A DNA stretch of 19,694 nt from the NCBI GenBank assembly GCA_043812195.1, contig JBDRML010000034.1:1-19694 (forward strand), written 5' to 3'. The stretch is from Candidatus Woesearchaeota archaeon (GTDB lineage Archaea; Nanobdellota; Nanobdellia; SCGC-AAA011-G17; PNOQ01). The notes under the pieces are model-generated. The model was not told the DNA's origin and searched no databases. It saw only the letters and a list, made by a program, of their open reading frames with translations. Shown one piece after another: positions 1,303 through 19,585 of this stretch. Position 1 is the first letter of the stretch. Each line of letters opens with the position of its first letter. Both the position numbers and the translations under genes were made by a program.

Positions 1303-2565
1303 ATGAAAAATAAATTATTTATCCTATTATTTATCCTAATTTTATTAATCCCTGTAATTATAAACGCAAGAGCAGAAGATGGAAAATTAAGCACAGAAGA
1401 AGAAAAATTAGCAGAAATCAACGAAATACAACTAAAACTATATGATGCAGGATTGATTGTAGAACAATTAGAAGAAGATGGCTTTCCAACACAGAGAGTT
1501 AATGATATTTTAGCATCAGCACAACAAATTCTCGAAGCTCAAACAGGGCGTGCAAATTCAGATTTTACATTAGTATTAAAATATTTAGAAGATTTAGAAT
1601 TAATTAATGGGCAAGCTTATGAAGCAAGAGATGAAGTTAAATATGTTAATGAGTTACTTGCACAAACAAAAGAAGATAGTCCAAATATTGATTTAACAGA
1701 ATCTGAAATAACTATAGGAGAAATGAATTCTGAATTCAACGCAGAAAAATATGGTGAAGCAATAGAGTTAGCGCAACAGGCATATGCAAAAATACTGAAA
1801 CAAGAAGGAGAACAAACTACAGCAAAATTAGCATTAGCATCTACTCAACAAACCATAAAAAATTTCTTTATAAATCACTGGTGGAAATTACTAATCGTTT
1901 TTGGTGCAGGAGTTATATTATTTTTAGTTTTTAGAAACAGATTTTTCTATTACAGAACAAAGTGGAAAATCAAGAAATTAGAAACAGAAGCTAAAGTAGT
2001 TGAAGAATTAATCAAAACATCACAATTAGCGTATTTCGAAAAAGGTACAATGGCAGAATCATCATATAGAATCAGAATTAAAAAATTCTCAGATTTAGTT
2101 AGAGACATAGACAGACAAATCCCATTATTAAAAGAAGAATTAGCTAAATGGAGAAAATCAAAAACATTCAATGCAGATGAACTAGCACAGAAAAAGAAAG
2201 ACGATATTAAAAATGGAAAAAAACCTGAAAATAACGGACCTAAACAAATGGATTCTAAGCAAATTCAAGATGAAAAGAAAGCACAAGAAGAACAAGTAGC
2301 AAAAGTAACTAAACAAACAAAAAAACAAGAAAGCAAGCTAATAAGACTTGATCTAAAAATAGCTGGCATTTTCAAAAATCTAACAAAGATTAGAAAAGAC
2401 ATTAAAAAAGTTAATAAATCAAAGAAGAAAATACTAAAAGCAAAAGAAAAGAAAGTTAAAAAAATTATCAAACCAATTAAAGTAGTAAAACCTAAAATCA
2501 TAAAGAAAAAGCCTAAAATCATAAAAAAGAAACCAGTAAAGAAAACAAAAAAGAAAAAGAAATAA
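1303..2565 (+). CDS. Hypothetical single-pass membrane protein: signal peptide, acidic helical/coiled-coil ectodomain, TM helix, Lys-rich cytoplasmic tail
   Basis: MKNKLFILLFILILLIPVIINARA signal; WWKLLIVFGAGVILFLVF TM segment; KPKIIKK repeats at C-terminus; starts 3 nt after the KaiC stop. Confidence 0.8.
   Translation: MKNKLFILLFILILLIPVIINARAEDGKLSTEEEKLAEINEIQLKLYDAGLIVEQLEEDGFPTQRVNDILASAQQILEAQTGRANSDFTLVLKYLEDLELINGQAYEARDEVKYVNELLAQTKEDSPNIDLTESEITIGEMNSEFNAEKYGEAIELAQQAYAKILKQEGEQTTAKLALASTQQTIKNFFINHWWKLLIVFGAGVILFLVFRNRFFYYRTKWKIKKLETEAKVVEELIKTSQLAYFEKGTMAESSYRIRIKKFSDLVRDIDRQIPLLKEELAKWRKSKTFNADELAQKKKDDIKNGKKPENNGPKQMDSKQIQDEKKAQEEQVAKVTKQTKKQESKLIRLDLKIAGIFKNLTKIRKDIKKVNKSKKKILKAKEKKVKKIIKPIKVVKPKIIKKKPKIIKKKPVKKTKKKKK
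2491..2525 (+). repeat. Coding tandem repeat, period 21 nt (PKIIKKK x2)
   Basis: cctaaaatcataaa at 2491-2504 and 2512-2525. Confidence 0.75.
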
Positions 2566-2589
2566 AAACCCCCTAGATTTCTATAATAT

Positions 2590-3288
2590 ATGAAATACGA
2601 CCAACATTTCCTAATAAATGAAAAAGTAATTCAAAGAACTATAAAAGAAGCCAATCTTAAAAAATCAGATATAGTTTTAGAAATAGGACCAGGAAAAGGA
2701 ATTTTAACTAAAGAACTAACTAAAAAATCTAAAGTTATTGCAATAGAGATAGATGAAAACCTAAAATTAAATATAAAAAATCTAAAACTAATTCATGGAA
2801 ATGCTTTAAAATTAATTAATAAAGTAAACTTCAACAAAATAATATCAAACATCCCTTATTCAATTACAGAACCATTATTCAAAAAACTATTCAAGAAAGA
2901 CTTTGATTTAGGAATTTTACTAATAGGAAAAAATTTTTACGATTTAATACAACAAGATTCCAAATGGTCAATAATCATACCAGAATTCTTTAAAGTAATA
3001 AAACTAATGGAGGTTCCAAAAGCATCATTTGAGCCAAGACCAAGAACAACATCAGTTCTAATTAAATTAACACCAAAAAAGAAAAATAAAGTAATACACA
3101 AATTAATCTTACAATCAGACAAGAAATTAAAAAATGCACTCCTTAAAATTTATTGGGACTCAAATTTAACAAAAAAACAAGCAAAAGAAAAAATAGAATC
3201 TTTAAGCATTCCAGAATCAATTCTAGAAAAGAATATAGACTATTTATCAAACAAACAATTTGAACTTGTCTATAAACAAATATCATAA
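2590..3288 (+). CDS. rsmA: 16S rRNA m6,2A dimethyltransferase KsgA/RsmA/Dim1
   Basis: QHFL, VLEIGPGKGILT SAM-binding motif, IEID, SNIPYSI, FEPRP. Confidence 0.93.
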   Translation: MKYDQHFLINEKVIQRTIKEANLKKSDIVLEIGPGKGILTKELTKKSKVIAIEIDENLKLNIKNLKLIHGNALKLINKVNFNKIISNIPYSITEPLFKKLFKKDFDLGILLIGKNFYDLIQQDSKWSIIIPEFFKVIKLMEVPKASFEPRPRTTSVLIKLTPKKKNKVIHKLILQSDKKLKNALLKIYWDSNLTKKQAKEKIESLSIPESILEKNIDYLSNKQFELVYKQIS

Positions 3289-3319
3289 TTTATATAAATA
3301 AAATATAAACAATGATTCT

Positions 3320-3727
3320 ATGAAAAAAGTAGCAGTTTCGGGTTATTTTACAGTTTTACACAAAGGCCATGTAGAACTCTTTAAAGAAGCTAAAAAATTA
3401 GGAGACGAATTAATTGTCATAGTTAATAATAATGACCAACAAATAGGAAAAAAAGGCAAGCTTATTCATGATGCACATGATATAAAACATATAATAGAAC
3501 ATCTCAACATGGTAAATTCAGTTGTTATTTCTGTTGACAAAGATAAAACAGTATGCAAAACTTTAGAAATGCTTAATCCCCACATATTTGCTAATGGGGG
3601 AGATAGAACAGGAGATAACATACCAGAAGTTCAAACCTGCAAAGATAAAGGCATAGAAATGATATTTAATGTTGGTGGAAACAAATACAACAGCTCATCC
3701 GATATCTTAAAAAGAGGCAGTTCATAA
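3320..3727 (+). CDS. HIGH-class nucleotidyltransferase (cytidylyltransferase-like; TagD/RfaE-II/RibL family)
   Basis: SGYFTVLHKGH (HxGH), GDELIVIVN, FANGGDR, C-terminal SSS motif. Confidence 0.88.
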   Translation: MKKVAVSGYFTVLHKGHVELFKEAKKLGDELIVIVNNNDQQIGKKGKLIHDAHDIKHIIEHLNMVNSVVISVDKDKTVCKTLEMLNPHIFANGGDRTGDNIPEVQTCKDKGIEMIFNVGGNKYNSSSDILKRGSS

Positions 3728-3777
3728 CTATATTAATATCAAAATCTATATAAAAACGAAACAATCTAATTCTATAC

Positions 3778-5163
3778 ATGAAAGACTTAGCAGAATTTTC
3801 AATTAAATTCTTACAAGAAAAAGGAGCAAATTATGCAGAAGCCAGATTAGAAAAGACTACATCAGAAGGATATATTTTAAAAAACGGAAATCCAGAAATT
3901 TCAGGGTTTAACAAATCAGAAGGAATAGGAATAAGATACTTAATGAACAATAGATTGGGGACTGTTTCTATAAATAATATTACAAAAGAAAAATTAAAAG
4001 AAGCATTACTAAATTCTTTAAGAATAACAAAAAACGCCACAAAAATATCTAAAAAAATTGAATTATCTCATAGCACTCCAAACATAAAAGACTATAAAAT
4101 AACACCAAAAGAAAATCTATCAGTAGATCAAAAATTTAAATTCTTAAAAGATTTACACAAAAATTTAAAAGCAGAAAATTCTTATCTTTCACTTTCAAAT
4201 AATTTAAGAGAAAAATACTATATAAATTCAGAAGGTTCTAAAATAAACTCTTCAATTCCAAGAGTAAGCCTGCTTTATTTCTTAACTCTAATAGAAAATC
4301 AACAATCAATTCAAAGATATTTAGAATTTGCAGCAGCCTCAGGATATGAATCATTCAAAAAATGGAAACCAATAGAACATATTTCTAATGAGATAAAAGC
4401 TCTAAGAAAAAATATCAAACATGGAGTTAAAGCACCAAAAGGAGTTTTTGATATAGTTTGCGGGCCAGAAGTTGTAGGTATAGCAGTTCACGAATCAGTT
4501 GGCCACCCATATGAAGCAGATAGAATTTTAGGAAGAGAAGCAGCACAAGCAGGAGAATCTTTTATAACTACAAAAATGCTTAATACTAAAATAGGTTCAG
4601 AAGAAGTAACTGTAGTTGATGATCCTACATTACCTAATAGTTATGGTTTTTATTTATATGATGATGAAGGCATAAAAGCACGAGAAAGAATTTTAATCAA
4701 AAATGGAGTAATAAAAGAATTCTTACACAATAGAGAATCAGCCCAAGAAATGGGAATTCAGAGCAATGGTTCTTCTAGAGCAAATAATTATTCAAATGAA
4801 GCTATAGTCAGAATGGCAAATACATACTTAAAACCAGGAAAAGCTAAAGAAGAAGAATTAATTAAAGATATCAAAAAAGGAATCTATCTTAAAAACTTCA
4901 TGGAATGGAATATTGATGATAAAAGATACAACGCAAAATATACAGGAAGTGAAGCTTATTTAATAGAAAAAGGAGAAATCACAAAACCAGTTAAAAATCC
5001 AGCTTTAGAAATCACAACACCAAAATTCTGGTCAGCTATAGATCTAGTAGCTAATAACTTAAAATTCTTTGCAGGTAATTGCGGAAAAGGAGAGCCGATG
5101 CAAGGCATCCCAGTTTACATGGGCGGGCCTTCTATAAGATTAAGAAAAATTAAAATGTCATAG
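3778..5163 (+). CDS. tldD: TldD/PmbA-family metalloprotease (TldD-type)
   Basis: HESVGHPYEADR (HExxxH), VVDDPT, YDDEG, RMANT, C-terminal GNCGKGEPMQ with the conserved Cys. Confidence 0.92.
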   Translation: MKDLAEFSIKFLQEKGANYAEARLEKTTSEGYILKNGNPEISGFNKSEGIGIRYLMNNRLGTVSINNITKEKLKEALLNSLRITKNATKISKKIELSHSTPNIKDYKITPKENLSVDQKFKFLKDLHKNLKAENSYLSLSNNLREKYYINSEGSKINSSIPRVSLLYFLTLIENQQSIQRYLEFAAASGYESFKKWKPIEHISNEIKALRKNIKHGVKAPKGVFDIVCGPEVVGIAVHESVGHPYEADRILGREAAQAGESFITTKMLNTKIGSEEVTVVDDPTLPNSYGFYLYDDEGIKARERILIKNGVIKEFLHNRESAQEMGIQSNGSSRANNYSNEAIVRMANTYLKPGKAKEEELIKDIKKGIYLKNFMEWNIDDKRYNAKYTGSEAYLIEKGEITKPVKNPALEITTPKFWSAIDLVANNLKFFAGNCGKGEPMQGIPVYMGGPSIRLRKIKMS

Positions 5164-5193: not shown

Positions 5194-5218
5194 GCGAGAA
5201 GTGTCTCGCGCTCTCTTT
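5194..5218 (+). terminator. Short GC-rich hairpin followed by a pyrimidine run downstream of tldD; possible terminator
   Basis: gcgaga-agtg-tctcgc (5194-5209) then gctctcttt, 30 nt after the tldD stop. Confidence 0.4.
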
Positions 5219-5344: not shown

Positions 5345-5388
5345 AAAGTGTTCACTGTCAATGCACAAAAGTGTTCACTGTCAATGCA
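5345..5388 (+). repeat. Perfect 21-bp direct repeat (period 23) immediately upstream of a TATA-like box
   Basis: aaagtgttcactgtcaatgca at 5345-5365 and 5368-5388. Confidence 0.92.
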
Positions 5389-5392
5389 AACC

Positions 5393-6692: not shown

Positions 6693-7136
6693 TTGAAAAA
6701 GATTTATATTGGTTCGGATCATGCAGGGTTTATTCTAAAAAATTCTATTAAAACACATTTAACTAATAAAAAACATAAATTTATAGATCTAGGTAACTTA
6801 AAATATGAAAAAGAGGATGATTATCCAGATTATGCAGAAGAAGTAGCAAAAAAAGTAGCAAAAGAAAAAACAAAAGGTATTCTAATTTGTGGTTCAAGCC
6901 ACGGAGTATGTATCGCAGCAAACAAAATAAAAGGAATTAGGGCAGTTGCAATTAATAATACAAAAGATGCTAAAATTACAAGAGAGCATAATGATGCAAA
7001 TATTCTATGTTTGTCTGAGTGGCATCTAAAAGAAAAAGAAGTTGGAAAAATAATTGATGTCTGGTTAAAAACAAATTTTAGAAAAGATAAAAGACATATA
7101 AGAAGAATAAACAAAATAAAGAAATTGGAAAGATGA
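6693..7136 (+). CDS. rpiB: Ribose-5-phosphate isomerase B
   Basis: GSDHAG, DYPD, ICGSSHGVCIAANKIKGIRA, REHNDANILCL, RHIRRINKI; TTG start with SD. Confidence 0.93.
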   Translation: MKKIYIGSDHAGFILKNSIKTHLTNKKHKFIDLGNLKYEKEDDYPDYAEEVAKKVAKEKTKGILICGSSHGVCIAANKIKGIRAVAINNTKDAKITREHNDANILCLSEWHLKEKEVGKIIDVWLKTNFRKDKRHIRRINKIKKLER

Positions 7137-7756
7137 ATTATCAAATAATACCGGCAATAATTGCTAAAAATCAAAAGGAACTAAATGTGAGAATTGTAAA
7201 AGTATACAGATATTTTAAAACAATACAGTTAGATGTAATGGATGGCATCTTTGTCAAAAATAAATCATTAATATTTAATTTTAGACTACCAAGAAATAAA
7301 AAATACGAAGCCCACTTAATGGTTAAAAATCCAATAAGCTGGATTAAAAAATATGATAACAACGTTCAAAGAATAGTAGTTCATGTAGAATCAGAAAATG
7401 TTGAAAAAGCATTAAATTTAATTAAAAGTATGAAAAAACAGGCAGGAATAGCTATAAATCCAAAGACACCACTTAATAAATATTTAAAATTTTTAAAAAA
7501 AATAAATTATGTAACAATATTAGCTGTAAATCCTGGAAAATATGGTAGCAAATTTATTCCTTCAGCACTTAAAAAAATAAAGGAAATTAAAAAAATAAAT
7601 CCTAAAATAAATATCGAAGTTGATGGTGGATTAGGAGATAAAAATATTAAACAAGCCAAAAAAGCAGGCGCAAATTTATTCATTTCAGGCTCATATCTTC
7701 AAAATTCAAAAGATATTGAATCCTCTATTAAAAAATTAAAATCTTTAATAAAATGA
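7133..7756 (+). CDS. rpe: Ribulose-phosphate 3-epimerase
   Basis: IIPAI, LDVMDGIFV, EAHLMV, GIAINPKTP, VNPG, EVDGG, GANLFISGS; ATGA overlap with rpiB. Confidence 0.92.
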   Translation: MNYQIIPAIIAKNQKELNVRIVKVYRYFKTIQLDVMDGIFVKNKSLIFNFRLPRNKKYEAHLMVKNPISWIKKYDNNVQRIVVHVESENVEKALNLIKSMKKQAGIAINPKTPLNKYLKFLKKINYVTILAVNPGKYGSKFIPSALKKIKEIKKINPKINIEVDGGLGDKNIKQAKKAGANLFISGSYLQNSKDIESSIKKLKSLIK

Positions 7757-9618
7757 AAAATATAAAAATAATGATGATTGTAATTTTGGTTTTTTGTATT
7801 CTAGTTATTTCTGGATGCGAATTACAATTATCCCAACCTAAAGGAAACGCACTTATTAACAAATCTGAGGCCACAGACACTTTAGAAGGAAGAGTTAGTT
7901 TAATAGCTATTGATGATTTTGATAACCCACAAAATAGTAGATTAGAATGGTTTATTAATACACCACAAGGATCCTTTATTTTAAGAGGAGATAACCTATT
8001 TTCATTAACGCCTGGCTCTAAAATTAGAGTTAGCGGGAAATTAGATGGTACGGATTTAACTATCACAGATGAAATTGTTATTCTTAGAGATGTAGAATTG
8101 CCAGGACCCGAATTTAATTTAGGAGAAAATAAAATTTTAATAATATCGGGAGAATACGGTGATTATCCAACTAATCTAGATACAGAAGAAATAAGACATT
8201 TTACATTTGAAGGATTTCCATCTATAAACGGTTATTATGAAGAAAACTCATACGGCAAGAGTTGGTTTGAAGGAGATGTTATCGGACCATTATATTTAGG
8301 AGACATAAAGCCTACAGGCATGCCTTGTTGGCCATTGAATCATCAAAATAAAATTACCATTACAGAGGATTTCATAGAAGCAGTAGATTCATTAATTAAC
8401 TTCACAGAATACAAACGTATCATTTTTTTATTGGGAGACAATTGTGCAAACGGATTTGGAGAAATTGGACCAGCAGTACATGAAACCTCAGACGGTGAAG
8501 TGATTCAGACTTGGGCATGGGTATCATCATATAGAGTTTCTGATTTCATTCATATCGCGTCTCACGAATTAGGGCACAATTTTGGAACTCTACATTCTAA
8601 CTTCGCATACTGCGGAAATATTGATTTTGGAGATAATTTTAGCAATTGTGAAAGTTGGGAGTATGGAAATATCTTTTCAGTCATGGGGGGTAATTCAAGA
8701 CTTGGACATTTTACAGTTAATTATAAGGATCAAATAGGGTGGATCAATATTGATGAAAAAATAAATGTAACTTCTGGAAAATATTTTTTAACACCATTAG
8801 AAATCGATAATGGTCTAAAAGAAATTATGATACCCTATGGGGTTATTAATGCCCCTTCTTTTACTTCATTTTTAGGTAATGTAAGTGCCTATTATATAAT
8901 AGAATATCGACAACCTCTTGGCTATGATAATAATTGGAACCCAGACTATAACTATTCAAATTACACATATGCAACACCTGAAATAAATGGGACATTTGTT
9001 ACGTTTAGAACTATTCCATACGACGACTTATTTTTCAACCCATACTTTAATTCAAATGAACATTTAATAGACTCCACACCTGAGGAATGGGAGTTGAATG
9101 GAACGAAAATGCCACAGGAAGATTCTATGTTATTAGAAGGACAAGAATTTCATGATAATAATATTGGAATAACAATCAGAGTTCTTTCGATGAATTCATC
9201 AGGAGCAGAAATTGAAATAATAAGAACTAAAGTTCCATCATGGACAGAATGTAACACAGAAACACAACCAAAAGATTGTAACGCTGTATGCACAGATTTA
9301 AATACAACATGCGTTGAAGAATGTACAACAATTAGTAGAGTTGAAAATGCAGGAGCAGAAATATTTATAGATGTAAACGACTGTAGTTTAGATTATTCTT
9401 ATGAAAGTGGTTGTTTCAACACAATACCAACCGGTTCAAGTAGGCATTGTTGTTGTTTAATTGAATCAGTTGGCGAACCAGAGCCTCCAAGTGGCGGAGG
9501 CAAAGAAGTATATCAACAAGCATTATTAGAAGAAGAAGGCTCACAATTGTCAAAAGAATCAATATTTACTAAAATAATAAACATAATTAAAAATATACTA
9601 ACAGCAAAAATAAAATGA
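7753..9618 (+). CDS. Secreted lipoprotein-type zinc metalloprotease (metzincin, M11 gametolysin/M6-like) with C-terminal Cys-rich domain
   Basis: Signal with lipobox LVISGC; YYEENSYGK; HELGHNFGTLH (HExxHxxGxxH) at 8563; Met-turn EYGNIFSVMG; IEYRQPLGYD; 10-Cys domain shared with 11454..15293. Confidence 0.85.
   Translation: MKNIKIMMIVILVFCILVISGCELQLSQPKGNALINKSEATDTLEGRVSLIAIDDFDNPQNSRLEWFINTPQGSFILRGDNLFSLTPGSKIRVSGKLDGTDLTITDEIVILRDVELPGPEFNLGENKILIISGEYGDYPTNLDTEEIRHFTFEGFPSINGYYEENSYGKSWFEGDVIGPLYLGDIKPTGMPCWPLNHQNKITITEDFIEAVDSLINFTEYKRIIFLLGDNCANGFGEIGPAVHETSDGEVIQTWAWVSSYRVSDFIHIASHELGHNFGTLHSNFAYCGNIDFGDNFSNCESWEYGNIFSVMGGNSRLGHFTVNYKDQIGWINIDEKINVTSGKYFLTPLEIDNGLKEIMIPYGVINAPSFTSFLGNVSAYYIIEYRQPLGYDNNWNPDYNYSNYTYATPEINGTFVTFRTIPYDDLFFNPYFNSNEHLIDSTPEEWELNGTKMPQEDSMLLEGQEFHDNNIGITIRVLSMNSSGAEIEIIRTKVPSWTECNTETQPKDCNAVCTDLNTTCVEECTTISRVENAGAEIFIDVNDCSLDYSYESGCFNTIPTGSSRHCCCLIESVGEPEPPSGGGKEVYQQALLEEEGSQLSKESIFTKIINIIKNILTAKIK
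9229..9480 (+). repeat. Cys-rich domain, copy 1 (copy 2 at 14757-15008)
   Basis: KVPSWTECNTETQPKDC...SSRHCCCLIESVGEP; 75/84 aa identical to copy 2; 47-nt exact match 9385-9431 = 14913-14959. Confidence 0.97.
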
Positions 9619-9621
9619 AAA
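9562..9621 (+). repeat. Conserved C-terminal tail plus stop/start junction, copy 1 (copy 2 at 15237-15296)
   Basis: 57/60 nt identical; last 33 nt exact (aaaaatatactaacagcaaaaataaaatgaaaa). Confidence 0.95.
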
Positions 9622-11402
9622 GAGAACTTCAAGAAATAGCAAACATTCTAAGAAGAGACGTAATAAAAATGACTACAGCAGCAGAAAGCGGTCACCCAAC
9701 TTCTTGCATGTCATGCGCAGAAATAATAAGTGCATTATTCTTTAATGAAATGAGATATAATAAAGATCCATTTAATCCAGACAATGACGAATTTATTTTA
9801 AGCAAAGGTCACGCAGCACCAATTTTATATGCAGCATTACACAGAGCAGGCAGATTAAAAGAAAAATTAACAAATCTAAGAAAATTAACAAGTTCATTAG
9901 AAGGTCATCCTACTCCAGAACTAAAATGGATAAAAGTTGCTACAGGTTCTTTAGGTCAGGGTTTATCAGCAGGAGTTGGAATGGCTTTAGCAGCAAAACT
10001 ACAAAAAAGAAAATTCAGAACTTATGTTTTAATAGGCGACAGCGAATCAGCAGAAGGCTCCAATTTTGAAGCAATACAATTAGCAGCACATTACAAATTA
10101 AACAATTTGTGTGCAATACTAGATGTAAATAGACTAGGCCAAACAAAACAAACAATGTTAGGCCACAATGTAGAAGAATACAAAAAAAGATACGATGCAT
10201 TTGGCTGGAATTCTATAATTATAGATGGACACGACATAGAACAAATCCTTAAAGCACTCAAAAAAGCTAGAGAATCAAATAAACCAACGATAATAATTGC
10301 AAAAACATTCAAAGGAAAAGGAATAAGATTTTTAGAAAATGAAATAGGACATCATGGAGAAGCACTAGACCACAAAAAAATGTTAATGGCACTAAAAGAA
10401 CTTCCAAATCCTAAATTTCCATACATAAAAATTCAAAAACCAACAAAAACAAAATTCAAAATAAAATTAAAGAAACCAAATAATATAAATTACAAATTAG
10501 GAGAAGAAATAGCAACAAGAGAAGCATATGGAAATGCTTTAGCTTCTTTAGCAGAAAGAAATCAAAATATTTTAGCAATAGATGCAGAAGTAAGCAACTC
10601 AACATTTTCAGAAGAAGTAAAAGAAAAAACACCAAAACAATTCATAGAAGCTTACATAGCAGAACAAAATATGATTGGGATGGCTTTAGGACTATCTAAA
10701 AAAGATTTCAATGTTTTTGCATCAAGTTTTTCAGCTTTTTTATCAAGAGCCCATGATCAATTAAGAATGGCAGCAGTTTCAGATGCAAATTTCACAGTCT
10801 GCGGCTCACATTCAGGAGTTTCAATAGGAAAAGATGGCGCCTCTCAAATGGGATTAGAAGACATATCAATGTTCAGATCTTTACCAAACAGCATTATTTT
10901 TTATCCATCAGATGCAGTCTCAACAGAGAAATTAACAAAACTATGTGCAAAATTAAAAGGAATAAAATATATTAGAACTACAAGACCAAAAACTCCAGTT
11001 ATTTATAAAAATTCAGAAAATTTCAAAATAGGAGATTTCAAAGTTCTTAAAAAATCAAAAAAAGACAAAGCAGTTGTAGTTGGTTCAGGAATAACAGTTC
11101 ATGAAGCATTAAAAGCTTACAAAGAATTAAAAAATATTGCAGTCATAGATTTATATTGTATTAAACCATTTAACTCAAAAAAATTCATAAAATTCATAAA
11201 AAAACACGGAAATAAAGTTATCATAGCAGAAGATCATTACAAGGAAGGCGGAATTGGTGAAATGTTAATCTCAGAACTTAAAAATACAAATATTAAAATC
11301 AAACATCTTTATATACCAGAAATTCCACATTCAGGTACACAAGAACAATTATTAAACAAATACAAAATAAATTCAAAAGCAATAATAAAAGCTGTAAAAT
11401 GA
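9615..11402 (+). CDS. tkt: Transketolase (single-chain)
   Basis: SGHPTSCMS, LSKGHAAP, LEGHP, TGSLGQG, TPP motif GDSESAEG...DVN, IAEQNM, DGASQMGLED, EDHY. Confidence 0.95.
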   Translation: MKRELQEIANILRRDVIKMTTAAESGHPTSCMSCAEIISALFFNEMRYNKDPFNPDNDEFILSKGHAAPILYAALHRAGRLKEKLTNLRKLTSSLEGHPTPELKWIKVATGSLGQGLSAGVGMALAAKLQKRKFRTYVLIGDSESAEGSNFEAIQLAAHYKLNNLCAILDVNRLGQTKQTMLGHNVEEYKKRYDAFGWNSIIIDGHDIEQILKALKKARESNKPTIIIAKTFKGKGIRFLENEIGHHGEALDHKKMLMALKELPNPKFPYIKIQKPTKTKFKIKLKKPNNINYKLGEEIATREAYGNALASLAERNQNILAIDAEVSNSTFSEEVKEKTPKQFIEAYIAEQNMIGMALGLSKKDFNVFASSFSAFLSRAHDQLRMAAVSDANFTVCGSHSGVSIGKDGASQMGLEDISMFRSLPNSIIFYPSDAVSTEKLTKLCAKLKGIKYIRTTRPKTPVIYKNSENFKIGDFKVLKKSKKDKAVVVGSGITVHEALKAYKELKNIAVIDLYCIKPFNSKKFIKFIKKHGNKVIIAEDHYKEGGIGEMLISELKNTNIKIKHLYIPEIPHSGTQEQLLNKYKINSKAIIKAVK

Positions 11403-11422
11403 AATAATTTTAAAAAGATAAT

Positions 11423-11430
11423 TATTTAAA
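11423..11430 (+). promoter_or_regulatory. TATA-like box for the C25/FG-GAP gene
   Basis: tatttaaa ending 24 nt before ATG 11454, the same spacing as at 193, 3320, 3778 and 19585. Confidence 0.5.
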
Positions 11431-11453
11431 TCAGTTTAAGCATTTTTAATTAC

Positions 11454-14400
11454 ATGAAAAAGAGGTTCATATTTATAATTCTAATCTTATTAGTTTTAGT
11501 TATCTCTGGATGTGAAGAATGGAGATCTGGTCCTGAAAAAAATAAGGACATTAAAAAGAAATATCTTACTGAATCTGAATTAGGATTAACTACTGATTTG
11601 TTTAAAGCAGAACAAATTTTTTCAGTTCAAGATTTAGAGAAAAACAAGAATCTTAGAAAATATTTAAAAGGAGATAAGTCTATAAGCCAGTACGATTATG
11701 TTGAAGTAACAAAATGGGCAGATCCAATAAGAAAAGAGCCATTTGGTTATAAAGAATATATAAAAGAAAGGGAATTTTTTGAAGCTACTTTAATTTATTC
11801 CTCAGAATCTGAAAATGATGATTTGCTTTTCTTAATAATCGATAGTAATCTATATCCTTACATAGAGAATGAACTTTCTATTTTTATCGGCGATTTAGAA
11901 AATGATGGGTACAATATTGAGATGTATACAGTAACGTATGGCGATCCAGAAGACTTAAGATCTTTTTTACAAACAGCTTATCCATCTCTTGTTGGAACTA
12001 TTTTAATAGGAGATATATCTACCGCTTGGTATGAAATTTATTATGATGAATTTCCCATAGATTATTTTTATATGGACCTAAATGGAAATTGGATAGATGA
12101 AGATAGCAATGGTTTATTTGAAAATCATACTGGTAGTGTGGAACCAGAAATATGGGTGGGAAGAATAGACGCAACAACATTAGAAGGTGACAATATAGAA
12201 CTATACAAAAATTATTTTAATAAAAATCATAAATACAGAACAAGTGAATTAAAGTTGCCAACAAGAGCTCTTGTTTATGTAGATAATGATTGGGCATATG
12301 GTTCACAATGGGAACAAGATCATGAATACTTATACGAATATATTAATTATGTAGATAATCACGATGGAACTAATGCATTTGATTACCAAAACCGCCTGAA
12401 TTGGGATTATGAATGGATAACAGTAATGGCACATTCTAGTTCTGGGGGGCACATTTTTAGCAGTAAATTTGAAGGAGATGAATATTTCGATAATTGGGTT
12501 TCTTCAAATGATATAATGGAACTAGATCCAAACGGTTTATTTTATAATCTCTTCGCATGCTCATCTGCTCGATTTACTGAATATGACTATATTGCCGGGA
12601 GATATCTTTTTGCAGATACATATGGTTTAGGTGTTGTTGGTTCAACTAAATCAGGAAGTATGCTACAATTTGGGTATTTCTATCAACCACTTAGTTATGG
12701 GAAGAATTTAGGAAGTGCGTATAAAGATTGGTTTGATTACATTGCAACAGATGGTTTTGATGAAGGAGAGATATCCTGGCATTATGGAATGGTTTTGCTT
12801 GGCGATCCAACTTTAAAACCTAACGTCCCTAATGAAATTCCTATTGCTGATATTAATATGGAAGATTATACTGAGATATCGTCATTAAATGATATAGTTG
12901 GAACTGCTAAAAAGGGAATTGAAGAAGGATCAACATTTGATAATTATAAATTATATATTGGCTTAGGAGTAAACCCTGAGGAATGGTCAACTAATGGAAT
13001 AACAGTAATCGAAAATGGGTCAATTGAGATAAATAAAAATTTACTTGGCGAATTTGATACGACTAAAACAAATGAAAAATTTAACACATTAAAATTAACT
13101 GTTAATGGATCTGAAACACAAACCAATTATAGAATAGTTATTGATGTAAATAATATTTATTTTTCTGATCCACTAAATAATGATTTTAAAAAAAGTGGAG
13201 AAAATATACAAATTATTGGTACTGTTATGGGAACCGATTTTTCTAACTATACTATTGATTATGGTATCGGTATCGAACCTACAACATGGTTTACTGAAGG
13301 GATTATATTAACTAATGGAGGTCTAAATCAAGTGATTGATGATGTTCTTGCTGTATGGGATACATCTACTATACTTGAAAATAACTTCTATACATTAAGA
13401 ATTACACGGTACGATGTTGATAGATTTCAAGTAACAGAAAAAATAATAATTTTTTTTGATCTAGAGTATTTGGAGGGATGGCCACAAAAAGTTAACTTTA
13501 GATTAGTAGCACCTTCTGTTGGTGTTGGAAGCATAGAGTCTAATAATGAAAAACATTGGAAAATTGTAGCTGGAGAATTTAAATATAGTGAATATTATAC
13601 ACCCAAACAAATTTATTTATTTAATTACGATGGTAAAGATGTACCCAACTGGCCTAAGGAAATCTGGAGCCAAGGTACTAGATCTCTATCAACATTAGCA
13701 AATATAGATGAAGGAGATAGTTTAGCGATTTACATTGGTGAAGAATTTCTATTATGGGGGTGGAATTATGACGGCAATACTTTTGGTAATTGGCCTTTCG
13801 AAATTGAACCATTTAATAGTGAAATTTATAATGGTCCAACAATAGGGGATATAGATAATGATAATGAACTAGAAATTATAGCTACAACATTAGTATTGGA
13901 TGAAATAGGAAGTTACATCGGAGTTTGGGATAAAAATGGAAATGTAGAAGATGGTTGGCCATTTATTTTAATAAATAGTACTATTGTAGGTAGTACACCT
14001 GCTATCTCTGACGTAGATAAAGATGGATTTTTAGAGATATTTATTGGATCCACAGACAAAGTTTACGGATTTAATCATGATGGTACACTTTTACCGGGTT
14101 GGCCAATATCAATAGATGGATTTATATGGAATTCACCTGTTATCGTAGATATTAATCAAGATGGTAATCTTGATATTATTTTTTGTTCTGATAAAGTCTA
14201 TGCATTTAATTTTAATGGAACTAATGTGGATGAAGATATTTGGCCAGTAGACATTAGTTGTTATATTGGATCTCCAGCAGTTGGAGATGCTGATGGTGAT
14301 GGAGATATTGAAATAGTGTTATCTTCTTATTTAGAGGGAGATGATCAGATTATTATAATCAATCATGATGGTACAATTTTACCTGGTTGGCCAGTTATCG

Positions 14401-15293
14401 CTCAAGGAACATCATTTACATCTCCTATATTAGGTGATATCGATGGAGATTATGATATAGAAATTTTAATTTCGAGCAACATAAATATTGGCAGACTTTA
14501 TGCATTTCATCATAATGGAAGTATAGTAAATGGTTGGCCAAAAATATTACCTACTCCAATTATAAATGAACATAGAGCTATAGAGAGAGGAACTCCAATT
14601 ATATCAGATCTAGATGAAGATGGAGATGTAGATATTATACTTGGTTATGAAAATTATCTTTTTGTGTGGGATTTAAACACACCTTACAATTCATTTACAA
14701 TGGAATGGCCAATGTTCCAACATGATCCTCAACATACTGGACTATACACAAAACCAAAAGTCCCAACATGGACAGAATGCAATACAGAAACACAACCTAA
14801 AGATTGCAACGATGTATGTGAAGACTTAAACACAACATGTATAGATGAATGTACAACAATCAGCGGAGTTGAAAATGCAGGAGCAGAAATATTCATAGAT
14901 GTAAATGACTGCAGTTTAGATTATTCTTATGAAAGTGGTTGTTTCAACACAATACCAACAGGTTCTAGTAGGCATTGTTGCTGTTTGCTTGAATCAATTA
15001 GCGAGCCAGATTTTTGTGGAGACGGGAATTGTAATGGTAATGAAACAGATATAAATTGTCCTGAGGATTGTGGTTGTCAGGCTGCTGGATGTGATACATT
15101 TGCTCCTGGAGACTGTTATTGTGATTCTGTATGCGTTGAATATGGAGATTGTTGTTCAGATGCATGCTCAGAGTGTGGATATTGTCCTAGAGGAGGAGGA
15201 AAAAAATTATATCAACAACTATCAAAAGAACCAACCATATTTACTAAAATACTAAACACAATCAAAAATATACTAACAGCAAAAATAAAATGA
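11454..15293 (+). CDS. Large secreted lipoprotein: C25 (gingipain-like) cysteine peptidase, two Ig-like repeats, FG-GAP repeats, Cys-rich domain and somatomedin-B-like domain
   Basis: LVISGC lipobox; ILIGD, DYFYMDL, PEIWVGRI, MAHSS (His327), FACSS (Cys369), LLGDPTL; repeated GWP...SP.(I/V).D(I/L)DxDGxxEI; WPMFQHDPQHTG; CGDGNC..NCPEDC; CYCDSVCVEYGDCCSD. Confidence 0.85.
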   Translation: MKKRFIFIILILLVLVISGCEEWRSGPEKNKDIKKKYLTESELGLTTDLFKAEQIFSVQDLEKNKNLRKYLKGDKSISQYDYVEVTKWADPIRKEPFGYKEYIKEREFFEATLIYSSESENDDLLFLIIDSNLYPYIENELSIFIGDLENDGYNIEMYTVTYGDPEDLRSFLQTAYPSLVGTILIGDISTAWYEIYYDEFPIDYFYMDLNGNWIDEDSNGLFENHTGSVEPEIWVGRIDATTLEGDNIELYKNYFNKNHKYRTSELKLPTRALVYVDNDWAYGSQWEQDHEYLYEYINYVDNHDGTNAFDYQNRLNWDYEWITVMAHSSSGGHIFSSKFEGDEYFDNWVSSNDIMELDPNGLFYNLFACSSARFTEYDYIAGRYLFADTYGLGVVGSTKSGSMLQFGYFYQPLSYGKNLGSAYKDWFDYIATDGFDEGEISWHYGMVLLGDPTLKPNVPNEIPIADINMEDYTEISSLNDIVGTAKKGIEEGSTFDNYKLYIGLGVNPEEWSTNGITVIENGSIEINKNLLGEFDTTKTNEKFNTLKLTVNGSETQTNYRIVIDVNNIYFSDPLNNDFKKSGENIQIIGTVMGTDFSNYTIDYGIGIEPTTWFTEGIILTNGGLNQVIDDVLAVWDTSTILENNFYTLRITRYDVDRFQVTEKIIIFFDLEYLEGWPQKVNFRLVAPSVGVGSIESNNEKHWKIVAGEFKYSEYYTPKQIYLFNYDGKDVPNWPKEIWSQGTRSLSTLANIDEGDSLAIYIGEEFLLWGWNYDGNTFGNWPFEIEPFNSEIYNGPTIGDIDNDNELEIIATTLVLDEIGSYIGVWDKNGNVEDGWPFILINSTIVGSTPAISDVDKDGFLEIFIGSTDKVYGFNHDGTLLPGWPISIDGFIWNSPVIVDINQDGNLDIIFCSDKVYAFNFNGTNVDEDIWPVDISCYIGSPAVGDADGDGDIEIVLSSYLEGDDQIIIINHDGTILPGWPVIAQGTSFTSPILGDIDGDYDIEILISSNINIGRLYAFHHNGSIVNGWPKILPTPIINEHRAIERGTPIISDLDEDGDVDIILGYENYLFVWDLNTPYNSFTMEWPMFQHDPQHTGLYTKPKVPTWTECNTETQPKDCNDVCEDLNTTCIDECTTISGVENAGAEIFIDVNDCSLDYSYESGCFNTIPTGSSRHCCCLLESISEPDFCGDGNCNGNETDINCPEDCGCQAAGCDTFAPGDCYCDSVCVEYGDCCSDACSECGYCPRGGGKKLYQQLSKEPTIFTKILNTIKNILTAKIK
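14757..15008 (+). repeat. Cys-rich domain, copy 2 (copy 1 at 9229-9480)
   Basis: KVPTWTECNTETQPKDC...SSRHCCCLLESISEP. Confidence 0.97.
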
Positions 15294-15296
15294 AAA
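15237..15296 (+). repeat. Conserved C-terminal tail plus stop/start junction, copy 2
   Basis: IFTKILNTIKNILTAKIK* versus IFTKIINIIKNILTAKIK*. Confidence 0.95.
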
Positions 15297-15946
15297 TACC
15301 ATTTAAAAGAATAAAAGAGGAAATAAGTAAAGAACATTTCAGAGTTGCTATTTTTGGTTCTGCTAGGATTAAAAGAAACGATAAAAATTATCAGATGATC
15401 TATGATTTATCAAAAAAAATAGGAGCAGAAAATATTGATATAGTTACTGGTGGAGGTCCAGGAATTATGGAAGCAGCTAATAAAGGCCATAGAGCAGGCA
15501 GCACTGGAACTTCACATTCATTTGGTTTATTAATTCAATTACCAAAAGAACAAAGAACAAATAATAGTTTAGATATCAAAAGAAATTTCTCTAAATTCAC
15601 AAGCAGATTAGATAGTTTTGCAGATTTATCAAATGTATTTATAGTCGCACCAGGTGGAATAGGTACAACACTAGAATTATTTTATATCTGGCAATTAACA
15701 CAAGTTAAAAAATTAAGAGAAGAAGTCCCAATAATTTTAATTGGCCCAATGTGGTCTGATCTAATTAAATGGGTCAAAAAATGGCAACTAAAAAGAAGAT
15801 TTATTGATAGAAAAGATTTGGACGGAATATTCTTCGCCAAAACTCCAGAAGAAGCAATGAAAATAATAAATAAAGCACATAAATTAAATATCGAAGGAAA
15901 GAGACAAATATCAAAGAAATTAAGAAATCTAAAGGAACACGTTTAG
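15290..15946 (+). CDS. LOG-family nucleotide phosphoribohydrolase (SLOG Rossmann fold)
   Basis: FGSAR, TGGGPGIMEAANKG, APGGIGTTLE (PGGxGTxxE), PIILIG. Confidence 0.92.
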   Translation: MKIPFKRIKEEISKEHFRVAIFGSARIKRNDKNYQMIYDLSKKIGAENIDIVTGGGPGIMEAANKGHRAGSTGTSHSFGLLIQLPKEQRTNNSLDIKRNFSKFTSRLDSFADLSNVFIVAPGGIGTTLELFYIWQLTQVKKLREEVPIILIGPMWSDLIKWVKKWQLKRRFIDRKDLDGIFFAKTPEEAMKIINKAHKLNIEGKRQISKKLRNLKEHV

Positions 15947-15966
15947 GTAAGAGAATTAATTATAAG

Positions 15967-17403
15967 TTATCTATTTGAATAAATCCAATTCACTTCAGGA
16001 TATTCAGAACATTCAAATTCAAGTTTATAATTTTCTTCCATAATACTTTTAAGATTTTGCCATTTTTCTGTTTCAAATCCAGAATTAAACTTTGTAAAAA
16101 TAAAATAAATAGTTTTATCTGTGGAATTTAATAGTTCTTTAATTGTTTCTTCATTCAAATTATCTGGATAATAAGCACTTTCTTTTTTTACATAATATCT
16201 AAATAATGGTGGGTTTTCACTAACAATCATAAAATCTCCATTTATACTTTGAAGTTCAGTAGCTACTTCCTCAAAACATTTTGTATTTGTATTATGATAA
16301 ATACCATATTCAACAAAAAAGTAAATTCCCGAAGAAATTAAAAGAATTAAAAGAATTACAAAAATTATTAACTTTTTATATTTCTTTACCTTATCTACAA
16401 AATATCCTGAAATTAAAGCAATAGTTGGAACAATTGCTAAAATAAACCTATCTTCTTTATGTGGCATATAAATCGCCATTCCTAAGAAAAAAGCAAACCA
16501 AATTAAAAGCAAATAAAATTCTTTTTTCAAGAAATCTTTTTTATACAAAATATAAATTAGCCCAATAACAAAAATAAATCCTATTATTGAGAACATCTGC
16601 AACCAATGATCAAAAAAGAAATGCCAAGATTGAATTCCACCCCAATAAGAAGATGCCATAGCTCCATGAATAAATGCTCCTATTGGATTATTATATTCAA
16701 AAACCCCATAAATAAACCAAGGAATCAAAGCTAAGAAAAATGCTAAAATTGAATACCACAAATATCTATCTTTCAAAAATTTAAAAGATTTATCTCTTGC
16801 TAAAAAATATAAGATAAAAACAGGAATTATCCATAAAGCAGTATATCTTGATAAAAGAGCTAAAGCTAAAAAAACCCCAAATAAAACCTTATGTTTTTTA
16901 TTCTCTTTTTCATAACCTTTCCAAAAACTTAAAAATGTAAGCAAAACCAAAAAAGTAAATAAAACACCAGTTAAAATTCTTCCACTGTAAAAAGCGTGCA
17001 GAGGAATTAAAGCAAAAAATGAAGAGGAAATCAAACCAATTTTTTTATTAAATAATTCTTTCCCTAATAAATAAACAAGAACAACACTAAAAGCCCCAAC
17101 TATTGGCATTATAAAATTTATTAAAAAATTTAATTTCAAAAAATAAAATCCAGATATCAAATAAGGCAATAATGGAGCCCTAAATCCCGCGCTTAAATTT
17201 AATTGATTCCCAGGCATAAAATCAATCCAACCATGTGTAAAAGAATATTGAAAAAAATTCTTAGATAAATCATAACCAAGATTAGTATATACTGTTTCAT
17301 CCCATAATTTGACAGGCATAACAAAAACAAAAAATACCCTAATTACTAAGGCAATTGCAAAAATGCAAATAATAATTCTATTTTTTTTAATCCAATTTTT
17401 CAT
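15967..17403 (-). CDS. GT-C fold polytopic glycosyltransferase (PMT_2/ArnT-like, GT39/GT83)
   Basis: WDE loop motif after TM1, RAPL, many TM helices, KEDRF; ATG 17403 overlaps the upstream stop (ATGA); ORF track starts at 17418. Confidence 0.85.
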   Translation of the reverse strand: MKNWIKKNRIIICIFAIALVIRVFFVFVMPVKLWDETVYTNLGYDLSKNFFQYSFTHGWIDFMPGNQLNLSAGFRAPLLPYLISGFYFLKLNFLINFIMPIVGAFSVVLVYLLGKELFNKKIGLISSSFFALIPLHAFYSGRILTGVLFTFLVLLTFLSFWKGYEKENKKHKVLFGVFLALALLSRYTALWIIPVFILYFLARDKSFKFLKDRYLWYSILAFFLALIPWFIYGVFEYNNPIGAFIHGAMASSYWGGIQSWHFFFDHWLQMFSIIGFIFVIGLIYILYKKDFLKKEFYLLLIWFAFFLGMAIYMPHKEDRFILAIVPTIALISGYFVDKVKKYKKLIIFVILLILLISSGIYFFVEYGIYHNTNTKCFEEVATELQSINGDFMIVSENPPLFRYYVKKESAYYPDNLNEETIKELLNSTDKTIYFIFTKFNSGFETEKWQNLKSIMEENYKLEFECSEYPEVNWIYSNR

Positions 17404-18546: not shown

Positions 18547-19017
18547 TTATTTCAAAGAACCAATTCTACTTCTATATTCTTTTATTTCTTTTTCAGAAAG
18601 ATTAGAAACTAATTCATCAAAATTTGAGATAAAATTCTGTGCTTCTATAAGCATGGCTTCAACTTTATTTTCTTGATCTACTTTCATATAATACTGAGCA
18701 TCAATTCTTTTATCTTTATGTTCATTAATTATTTTAGTTTTATCTTCTCCTAACAAAATACCTACAGCAAGAATTGAACAAGAATGATTCTCACATTTTA
18801 CTCCAATTCGTTGAAGAAAAGAATAAAGAGAATAATATTCTGCATAATAGATTGCCACAGTTGTCCAAAGCAAATCTTTATCTTCAAAGTTTTTTCTGGC
18901 TCTTAATAAAGAAGATTTGGCTTGTTCAAGATAAGATTTTGATAATCTTTCATTCGGTTCAACTACATTTAATCCATCTTTTATCTTAAAACACCACTTT
19001 AGTTTTTTATTTTCCAT
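18547..19017 (-). CDS. HEPN-domain protein (toxin-type partner of MNT)
   Basis: YYAEYY helix, CENH, RIDAQY (Rx4Y variant); 11-nt overlap with the upstream MNT gene. Confidence 0.85.
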   Translation of the reverse strand: MENKKLKWCFKIKDGLNVVEPNERLSKSYLEQAKSSLLRARKNFEDKDLLWTTVAIYYAEYYSLYSFLQRIGVKCENHSCSILAVGILLGEDKTKIINEHKDKRIDAQYYMKVDQENKVEAMLIEAQNFISNFDELVSNLSEKEIKEYRSRIGSLK

Positions 19018-19585
19018 AGTAACTCCACATAGTATTTACATAAAAAGAATGATTGCTTAAAATTATATGATTTTCTTCAATCTCCTTTATTAAGTTTTCT
19101 TGCTCCTTGAGTGCTTTTAAAAAAGTTTTTTCACCGAAATTAAGTGGATGGACTTTAAAAGGTAACAAATGAAAGGGCAGATTTAATTCTTTTTCTGAAA
19201 TTATTAACAAATCCAAATCTGAATTTTTATCTGCTGTAAATTTAGCAAAACTTCCAAAAACAATTATAGGAGCAGTTATTTTAAGAGATTTTAAAAACAT
19301 CTTAAATTGAGGATATTTTTCTATAAATAAATCTGTTTTATAAATTTCTGCTTGTAGTAAATATAATTTAGTTTTTATATTATCGAGGTTTAATGAAAAA
19401 TATTTATTCTTTCCTTCTATTTTACTTTTAAGAACGTTAAATTTTTCTAATAATGCTAAAACATTTTGGCAGGTTTTAAGAGGTAATTTTGACAATTTGC
19501 TTATTTCTCTCAAATAAAATCTTGATTTGTAGTTTCCTATAAACAAAGAGACTACTTCCAATCCATTGTTTCCTTTTTGATACAT
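19007..19585 (-). CDS. wHTH-minimal nucleotidyltransferase (MNT) antitoxin
   Basis: N-terminal FYLREISKLSKLPLKTCQNVLALLEK wHTH; FGSFAKFTADKNSDLD (GSx10DxD). Confidence 0.88.
   Translation of the reverse strand: MYQKGNNGLEVVSLFIGNYKSRFYLREISKLSKLPLKTCQNVLALLEKFNVLKSKIEGKNKYFSLNLDNIKTKLYLLQAEIYKTDLFIEKYPQFKMFLKSLKITAPIIVFGSFAKFTADKNSDLDLLIISEKELNLPFHLLPFKVHPLNFGEKTFLKALKEQENLIKEIEENHIILSNHSFYVNTMWSYYGK

Follow-up and report, generated by a model that had tools for sequence, protein, structure and literature searches.

A strain-variable unit carrying a protease-like gene at the tkt-LOG junction of a pentose-phosphate operon in a groundwater DPANN archaeon

The 19,694-nt stretch of DNA analyzed here (the window) is the entire contig C34 of the 938-kb, 45-contig genome of a groundwater DPANN archaeon of the Woese/Pacearchaeota type. 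It carries a pentose-phosphate operon in the order rpiB, rpe, prot1, tkt, prot2, LOG, in which prot1 and prot2 encode protease-like proteins. Stop and start codons overlap in a 4-base ATGA at four of the five junctions. We found that a 3,891-bp unit made up of prot2 and the spacer in front of it is a presence/absence polymorphism among near-identical strains, with both forms occurring together in one sample (public run X1). The breakpoints lie inside the 10-nt sequence TAAAATGAAA, which is single in the strains that lack the unit (the empty form) and double in those that carry it (the filled form), and in the empty strains tkt and LOG are joined by a 4-base stop/start overlap. The gene prot1, located between rpe and tkt, is a very divergent replacement allele between strains, and no insertion or deletion of it was seen. 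The coordinates of all features are collected in Table 1.

The empty form was observed in two kinds of data. Among metagenome contigs searched with tkt, two proved to be near-identical, L102 and L103. L102 (4,889 nt) matches window 9109-11421 at 96.4% nucleotide identity and resumes at 15286-16295 at 98.9%; its open reading frames (ORFs) are the end of rpe, a 621-amino-acid prot1, tkt (2100-3887) and LOG (3884-4540), the last two sharing an ATGA overlap. The alignment follows the end of the window tkt up to TAAAATGAAA and the window prot2/LOG junction thereafter, with the crossover inside TAAAATGAAA. L103 is 99.8% identical to window 7637-11008, and the tkt-LOG junction falls outside its span. 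We also aligned contigs, not reads, of four public runs (X1-X4, from four studies) to window 6700-16000. A joint from 11394 to 15286, at which 3,891 letters are skipped and 10 letters fit either side, is present in contigs of three of the four runs, namely X1 (depth 5.55, shorter side of 255 letters), X3 (depth 7.52, shorter side also 255) and X4 (depth 7.1, shorter side of 131 letters). X1 additionally holds filled-form contigs at 11700-12151, 13571-14050 and 14191-14631 with zero differences from the window. For X2, only filled-form contigs were found, and there is no tkt-LOG joint among the joints listed. The filled-form contigs of X1 and X2 carry 0-1 differences from the window, and the empty-form contigs carry 4-15, located in the tkt end. 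We take both forms as real, given that a 10-nt repeat is too short to cause an assembly mis-join; a chimeric filled contig is likewise unlikely, since the left junction of the filled form has just 10 nt in common with any other place. The sister sequences in L102, X1, X3 and X4 are thus collinear with the window on both sides and lack exactly the unit and one copy of the repeat. An initial annotation of this DNA had stated that removal of each protease unit with one repeat copy restores ATGA-coupled junctions; this is what the four data sets show for tkt-LOG, and no corresponding empty site between rpe and tkt was seen in L102, in L103 or among the joints listed for the four runs.

The same annotation had described both protease genes as bounded by direct repeats, and both repeats are present: a 13-nt repeat, AATAAAATGAAAA, around prot1 and the 10-nt repeat around the prot2 unit. 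The 13-mer has a third copy at 15284 that had not been listed. In the window, TAAAATGAAA occurs at 7749, 9611, 11395 and 15286, all on the plus strand (4 matches against 0.92 expected, a count reached by 2 of 200 shuffles), and AATAAAATGAAAA at 7747, 9609 and 15284 (3 matches against 0.06 expected, reached by 0 of 200 shuffles). The shuffle test overstates significance because the tails concerned are homologous, the motif is a consensus junction sequence and some random junction pairs share as much. At 9609 and 15284, the copies form the ends of a homologous tail of 77 nt that is 87% identical between the two genes and exact over the 33 nt up to ATGAAAA, so that the right-hand copies are alike through the C-terminal module and tail that prot1 and prot2 have in common. 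Across the 81 ATGA junctions of the genome with at least 80 open codons on either side, the 13-mer is the modal base at each position, and it is found exactly at one junction outside C34. Random pairs of junctions outside C34 have at least 13 nt in common in 17 of 2,850 cases and at least 10 nt in 122 of 2,850. Ten control genes with ATGA at both ends are flanked by repeats of 4, 12, 8, 4, 4, 5, 8, 5, 5 and 4 nt, and chance is sufficient to account for the 13-nt repeat that flanks prot1. The control with the 12-nt repeat is an 81-codon gene (C15:8798-9040) that could itself be a small insertion of the prot2-unit kind. TGA is the rarest but one of the stops in this genome (159 of 757 long frames) and is mostly used at stop/start overlaps, given that 102 of the 159 TGA stops sit within ATGA.

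Our best reading of the prot2 polymorphism, which we hold with moderate confidence, is that a unit consisting of a promoter and a gene entered an ATGA-coupled junction of tkt and LOG through short-homology recombination involving the unit's own 3' end. The empty state would then be ancestral, and the unit would have entered the coupled junction by recombination with the identical 10-11 nt at its own 3' end, the recombining bases being the final codons of the conserved tail together with its stop (...ATA AAA TGA AA). The route could have been a Campbell-type crossover of an intermediate that was circular or tandem, or else a double crossover at short homology. As the outcome, tkt would have kept its stop plus a fossil ATG-AAA-TAA, and LOG would have come to share a new stop/start overlap with the end of prot2. 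Later, filled and empty alleles, as well as prot1 alleles, would have moved between strains by homologous recombination in the conserved flanks. The 13-nt repeat of prot1 may be an older scar left by such an insertion. The right copy of the 10-nt repeat lies inside a 33-nt exact stretch common to the prot1 tail and is thus native to the unit, which argues for a crossover of identical short sequences in unit and target and not for a target duplication of the transposase type. The non-coding stretch between the tkt stop (11402) and the prot2 start (11454) is 51 bases long, and the A/T-rich spacer within it, in which no hairpin beyond shuffled sequence was found, is presumed to be prot2's own promoter.

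We considered that the change could have run in the other direction, with tkt-prot2-LOG ancestral and the empty strains having lost the unit by slippage or by short-homology recombination between 10-nt copies that are alike through their K-stop/M-K junctions. Such a precise deletion is possible but clearly less probable. It would leave exactly the junctions observed, namely those made when the DNA between the repeats is lost together with one copy; the 10-mer is common, ending 14 of 757 frames of at least 150 codons in register and standing at 10 of the 81 ATGA junctions; and small reduced genomes are prone to deletion. However, deletion requires a coincidence at the tkt end, where the chance of a 10-mer match is about 1.3% (10 of 753 frames when this contig's four are left out). 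It also requires an uncoupled ATGA stop at tkt, together with a LOG gene independently coupled to prot2 via the same tail end that couples tkt to prot1. That both tail genes are coupled downstream in this way would be a double coincidence unless the tail end recombines with ATGA junctions. The stop of tkt lies inside ATGAAATAA, where ATGA is followed by AATAA, and the ORF from that ATG has 2 codons and is no gene; this ATG-AAA-stop is what a duplicated LOG start would leave and favors insertion. Insertion is further favored by the distribution of the two forms, the filled one being a single near-clonal sequence in two runs and the empty one occurring in four data sets with varied differences (4-15), and by the relatives, none of which has a surface protein between tkt and LOG and one of which has tkt followed by LOG after a short spacer.

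Several points weigh against insertion, the first being that its direction is unproven, given that no outgroup above about 64% tkt identity spans the junction and that precise deletion fits equally. The 10-mer behaves as an ordinary junction consensus also outside C34 (7 of 76 ATGA junctions), in keeping with the initial annotation's own caveat that the motif arises readily in A-rich junctions, and the minus-strand case that it named, near 17400, indeed carries TTCAAAATGAAAA. With a 12-nt repeat among the ten controls, the 13-nt repeat of prot1 is not beyond chance, and the cassette-like insertion claim is not supported for prot1 in the form first given; for prot2 the empty site was found, with the mechanism inferred and deletion fitting too. 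A donor copy of prot2 was not found in other places, and the exact protein is on one contig only. Two of the four tail-family genes in the genome, those on C23 and C41, are not at ATGA junctions, their tails ending in IFGL* and SKLY* with TAA stops and ordinary spacers. The proposal that the tail supplies the start codon of the next gene consequently holds for the two near-identical tails of prot1 and prot2 and fails for the other two. Of the other 239 genomes in the order, 4 matched a profile of the tail, all weakly and over short lengths (E of 5e-4 to 8e-3). The excision circles that the initial annotation had raised did not appear, there being no back-joint from the right end of the prot2 unit to its left end among the joints listed for the four runs, which are contig data. 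Lastly, differences between L102 and the window crowd around the junction, with five of them within 20 nt, compared with about 1% elsewhere in tkt. This cluster suggests that recombination in the flanks has since moved the alleles and that the event separating the strains may not be the original one.

We also considered that a recombinase encoded elsewhere in the genome could move protease genes with this tail, as circles, both into stop/start overlaps and out of them, in an integron-like manner with a very short site. The junctions are precise, look reversible and share a short common core, both forms occur in one sample, and the genome has four PF00589 tyrosine-recombinase matches (on C1, C15, C36 and C45), one TnpB-like match and one Y1 transposase match. 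Contig C34 itself carries no recombinase: as initially annotated, the window holds no integrase or transposase, none of its 16 proteins matching an integrase or recombinase family, and the prot2 unit encodes prot2 only and no transposase. No terminal inverted repeats at the unit's ends were present among the best 25 of 283 pairs, and DNA folds at both ends on both strands gave z-scores of -0.9 to -1.5, with 21-26 of 200 shuffles as good at -1.2 to -1.5. A GC-rich palindromic repeat has one window match at up to 3 mismatches, which lies away from the boundaries of both protease genes. Together with the missing circle joint and with just two of four tail genes standing at such junctions, these results make site-specific recombination an unlikely explanation. 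Scans for sigma-70 promoters (66 against a background of 54.7) and terminators (3 against 2.7) gave values close to background, with methods not suited to archaea.

A stronger form of the insertion reading would be that the tail end doubles as a built-in attachment site matching the commonest stop/start overlap, so that surface-protease genes with a promoter of their own could be slotted in and out of coupled junctions without polar damage; we regard this as doubtful. Should it apply, the locus would represent a DPANN cassette system whose site is a coding gene end and not a hairpin, with the host's recombination machinery as a candidate catalyst.

The prot2 case is of a known kind, in which a short direct repeat at a gene junction accompanies the gain or loss of a gene unit and sister strains have the empty site. 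Integron gene cassettes, archaeal ones included, are said to have been treated by Ghaly et al. in 2022. The prot2 unit resembles integron cassettes in being a single-gene unit slotted into a transcribed array; it differs in that the contig has no IntI, in that the ends show neither an attC-like hairpin nor a GTTRRRY core, and in that the spacer upstream looks like a promoter of its own. Campbell-type or short-homology (illegitimate) integration is closer, given the lack of a mobility gene in the unit, the single repeat in the empty strains and the intact neighbors, although here the repeat is only 10 nt and, in its right copy, consists of the coding end of a conserved tail, so that the unit carries its own match to the genome's commonest stop/start junction. 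Short-repeat deletion by replication slippage likewise yields an empty allele equal to the filled one minus the interval and one repeat copy, and differs here in that the polarity arguments favor gain. Furuta et al. 2010 (PMC2853133) define "insertion with long target duplication" by duplications of >30 bp. The likeness to the insertions described there lies in accessory genes with a direct duplication, found by strain comparison with no other mobile element, whereas the repeat here is 10 nt (11 counting the next A), short of the >30-bp limit, and one copy is native to the insert. Within the limited literature search made, no description of gene insertion at stop/start overlaps was found.

At the rpe/tkt junction, prot1 was present in every strain seen. 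The L102 prot1 has the same length as that of the window and 56% amino acid identity to it, the rpe, tkt and LOG proteins being 99-100% identical. Divergence begins at the start codon and fades in the common tail (Table 1). An X3 contig has 7960-9110 replaced by 1146 different letters; two prot1 alleles are thus seen in sequence, and a further one is hinted at by this contig. As in the replacement flexible genomic islands of aquatic prokaryotes (Lopez-Perez et al. 2014, PMC4033161), the same locus holds divergent content with a surface function between near-identical flanks; prot1 differs in being a single gene in a core metabolic operon and not a multi-gene glycosylation island. The C-terminal modules of the window prot1, the L102 prot1 and the window prot2 are about equally distant from each other, and by this comparison the three genes look like members of one pool of tail-bearing genes. 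A joint from 7752 to 9981 was considered as a prot1 empty site and rejected as a stray match, given its 22-letter side at a depth of 31.7 and an equally short joint, 10007 to 15537, at the same depth. In X4 only, a back-joint from 9635 to 7578 occurs with 10 letters between. Near the rpe 3' end (7627-7675), five variant positions within 50 nt are partly common to contigs of X2, X3 and X4, and the roughly 87 bases from there to the prot1 start are identical; this pattern looks like a small recombination tract.

The behavior of prot1 as a replacement allele is one point in favor of a further explanation, namely that the repeats are irrelevant and that the filled/empty and prot1 variants are old balanced polymorphisms shuffled by recombination through rpe, tkt and LOG. 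The 10-nt identity would then be merely the point at which any two alignments must switch. Mosaic clusters of single-nucleotide differences, comprising the five variants at 7627-7675, blocks with 3-4 mismatches in tkt and the 5 mismatches within 20 nt of the junction, are consistent with such exchange. It would nevertheless account for the spread of the alleles and not for their origin, since the placement of prot2 between tkt and LOG still needs an event, and it leaves the 10-nt duplication with the fossil ATG-AAA after the tkt stop unexplained. We therefore find flank-driven exchange on its own very unlikely.

The proteins encoded by prot1 and prot2 both start with a lipobox signal (..LVISGC). 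Toward the C-terminus, they have a common Cys-rich module, then a GGGK-acidic linker and last a tail that looks amphipathic, IFTKI(I/L)N(I/T)IKNILTAKIK. At their 3' ends, the two genes are 87% identical over the 261-nt Cys-rich module and again over the 77-nt tail, the proteins match in BLASTP at E=1e-51, and the module of prot2 carries an extra Cys-rich insert that prot1 does not have. An X1 contig (depth 3.3) skips 206 letters at window 14997-15204, most of this insert, and comes from a shorter prot2 allele or else from a third member of the family that maps to this place. At least four large secreted proteins of the genome end in the tail, which is encoded at window 9466-9615 and 15141-15290, C23:21447-21596 and C41:11823-11972. 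This lineage-specific tail, with its GGGK, acidic linker and amphipathic-looking helix, may be a surface-anchoring signal. The names "metzincin" for prot1 and "C25" for prot2, used in the initial annotation, are reasonable, resting on homologs and not on matches above curated thresholds. prot1 has the motif HELGHNFGTLH (HExxHxxGxxH type) at residues 271-281; its Pfam reprolysin and matrixin matches are all below the cut-off (best Reprolysin_5, E=0.0049, 17.6 vs 27 bits), and its homologs carry PF05548 (gametolysin M11) and PF13688. prot2 has FG-GAP repeats (PF13517, E=6.5e-17) and itself no PF01364 match at E<=5; many homologs of its N-terminal third (35-45% identity) carry PF01364 (Peptidase_C25), with an Atlas lead of 0.90 to C25 clusters. 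The best database homolog of prot2 is 51% identical and is without the tail, and within the order 46% local identity was reached, in repeat regions. Sequence searches of the PDB gave nothing usable for prot1 or prot2.

Gene order in relatives was read from 80 genome_contigs loci (about 27 of them DPANN, with tkt 55-67% identical) and 80 metagenome loci, using tblastn at E<=1e-5. Neither prot1 nor prot2 had a match in the 80 genome_contigs loci, and among the 80 metagenome loci matches were found only in L102 and L103. L027, L033, L035 and L151 have the order rpiB-rpe-tkt, and the distance of 18-93 bases between their rpe and tkt matches leaves no room for a gene; L042 has rpiB-tkt. Other genes occupy the same places elsewhere: a CYTH-domain ORF and a 127-amino-acid ORF lie between rpe and tkt in L023, an unknown 130-amino-acid ORF is ATGA-coupled to rpe in L137, and a small membrane ORF and a DEAD-box helicase lie between tkt and LOG in L026. 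L164, a more distant relative, has tkt, a short spacer and LOG, as read from sequence matches with ORFs not called, and in L037 and L038 LOG is convergent to tkt. The synteny comparison proposed in the initial annotation thus yielded contiguous tkt-LOG (L102, and L164 with its short spacer) and different cargo, and did not yield an empty rpe-tkt junction in near-identical contigs. No repeat signature was found at the junctions of other genes in the two relatives read. Among family genomes of the species collection, which include none of the same genus, tkt found matches in 3 of 24, as split genes of 36-42% identity without rpe or rpiB nearby. The nearest transketolases, 55-67% identical, come from metagenome-assembled genomes labelled Woesearchaeota, Pacearchaeota or Nanoarchaeota. 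From these gene orders, we conclude that the operon core is old, that the protease genes are newcomers in this lineage and that the same junctions hold other genes elsewhere.

Surface-protein genes vary between strains in the rpiB-rpe-tkt-LOG operon, which is a hot spot for them. DPANN archaea live on other cells or together with them, and their surface proteins are believed to determine which partners they attach to. Two protease-like lipoproteins, predicted to be secreted, are encoded inside a core sugar-phosphate operon, one as a gain/loss polymorphism with both forms in a single groundwater sample and the other as a hyper-divergent allele that aligns at its ends only, and the locus provides a concrete place to study surface variation in these archaea. 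It appears to show how a gene may enter a translationally coupled junction with both neighbors kept expressed. If the tail end truly serves as a recombination site, cassettes would be built here in a new way; if it does not, the locus is a well-documented but ordinary strain-level indel. In either case, it is a clean population-level example of gene gain or loss with both neighbors intact in a poorly known archaeal group, for which the insertion mechanism proposed above is somewhat favored.

Table 1. Features of the pentose-phosphate operon in the window and sequence identity to L102
Feature	Position	Strand	Description
rpiB	6693..7136	+	First pentose-phosphate operon gene; PF02502 E=1.1e-47
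rpiB/rpe junction	ATGA-coupled at 7133	+	Junction sequence GGAAAGATGAATT
rpe (ribulose-phosphate 3-epimerase)	7133..7756	+	PF00834 E=2e-42; C-terminus ...LIK*; stop overlaps prot1 start
13-nt repeat AATAAAATGAAAA, rpe/prot1 junction	7747..7759	+	Equals the genome's consensus ATGA junction
prot1	7753..9618	+	621 aa, lipobox, HELGHNFGTLH; metalloprotease-like
C-terminal Cys-rich module and GGGK...IFTKIINIIKNILTAKIK tail common to prot1 and prot2	9222..9621	+	Three-way alignment
13-nt repeat copy, prot1/tkt junction	9609..9621	+	Last tail codons of prot1, stop, tkt start
tkt, fused 595-aa transketolase	9615..11402	+	PF00456/PF02779/PF02780
10-nt repeat TAAAATGAAA, left copy	11395..11404	+	Left limit of the strain-variable segment
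Spacer 5' of prot2	11405..11453	+	Non-coding 49 nt, A/T-rich; TATA-like ATTATTTAAAT ~25 nt before ATG
Strain-variable segment	11405..15295 (equally 11395-15285)	+	3,891 bp = 49-nt spacer, prot2 and one repeat copy
prot2	11454..15293	+	1279-aa lipobox protein, C25-like N-terminus, FG-GAP repeats
10-nt repeat, right copy	15286..15295 (13-mer 15284-15296)	+	Last codons of prot2, stop, LOG start
LOG-family gene	15290..15946	+	218 aa; PF03641 E=4.7e-19
Nucleotide identity per 100-nt block, L102 vs window: rpe			95-100%
Nucleotide identity per 100-nt block, L102 vs window: block with prot1 start			87%
Nucleotide identity per 100-nt block, L102 vs window: prot1 passenger domain			41-73%
Nucleotide identity per 100-nt block, L102 vs window: C-module and tail			84-93%
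Nucleotide identity per 100-nt block, L102 vs window: tkt and LOG			First tkt block 100%; tkt and LOG 96-100%

The genome has an overall composition of 29% G+C, with 27-33% per contig. Outside the operon, the window contains further features. At 5194-5218, between tldD and an AAA_14/DUF4143 ATPase gene, lies the GC-rich, partly palindromic repeat mentioned above (AGCGAGAAGTGTCTCGCGCTCTC...), of which five further copies are on C1. Just 5' of the AAA_14 ATPase gene, at 5349-5392, AAAGTGTTCACTGTCAATGCA of about 21 nt occurs twice in tandem and is possibly a binding site. For a 420-amino-acid ORF at 1303-2565, directly 3' of the gene of a KaiC-like ATPase, Pfam gave no match at E<=0.01. On the minus strand at 18547-19585, a HEPN gene (156 amino acids) and a nucleotidyltransferase gene (192 amino acids) form an overlapping pair in the usual toxin-antitoxin-like arrangement.

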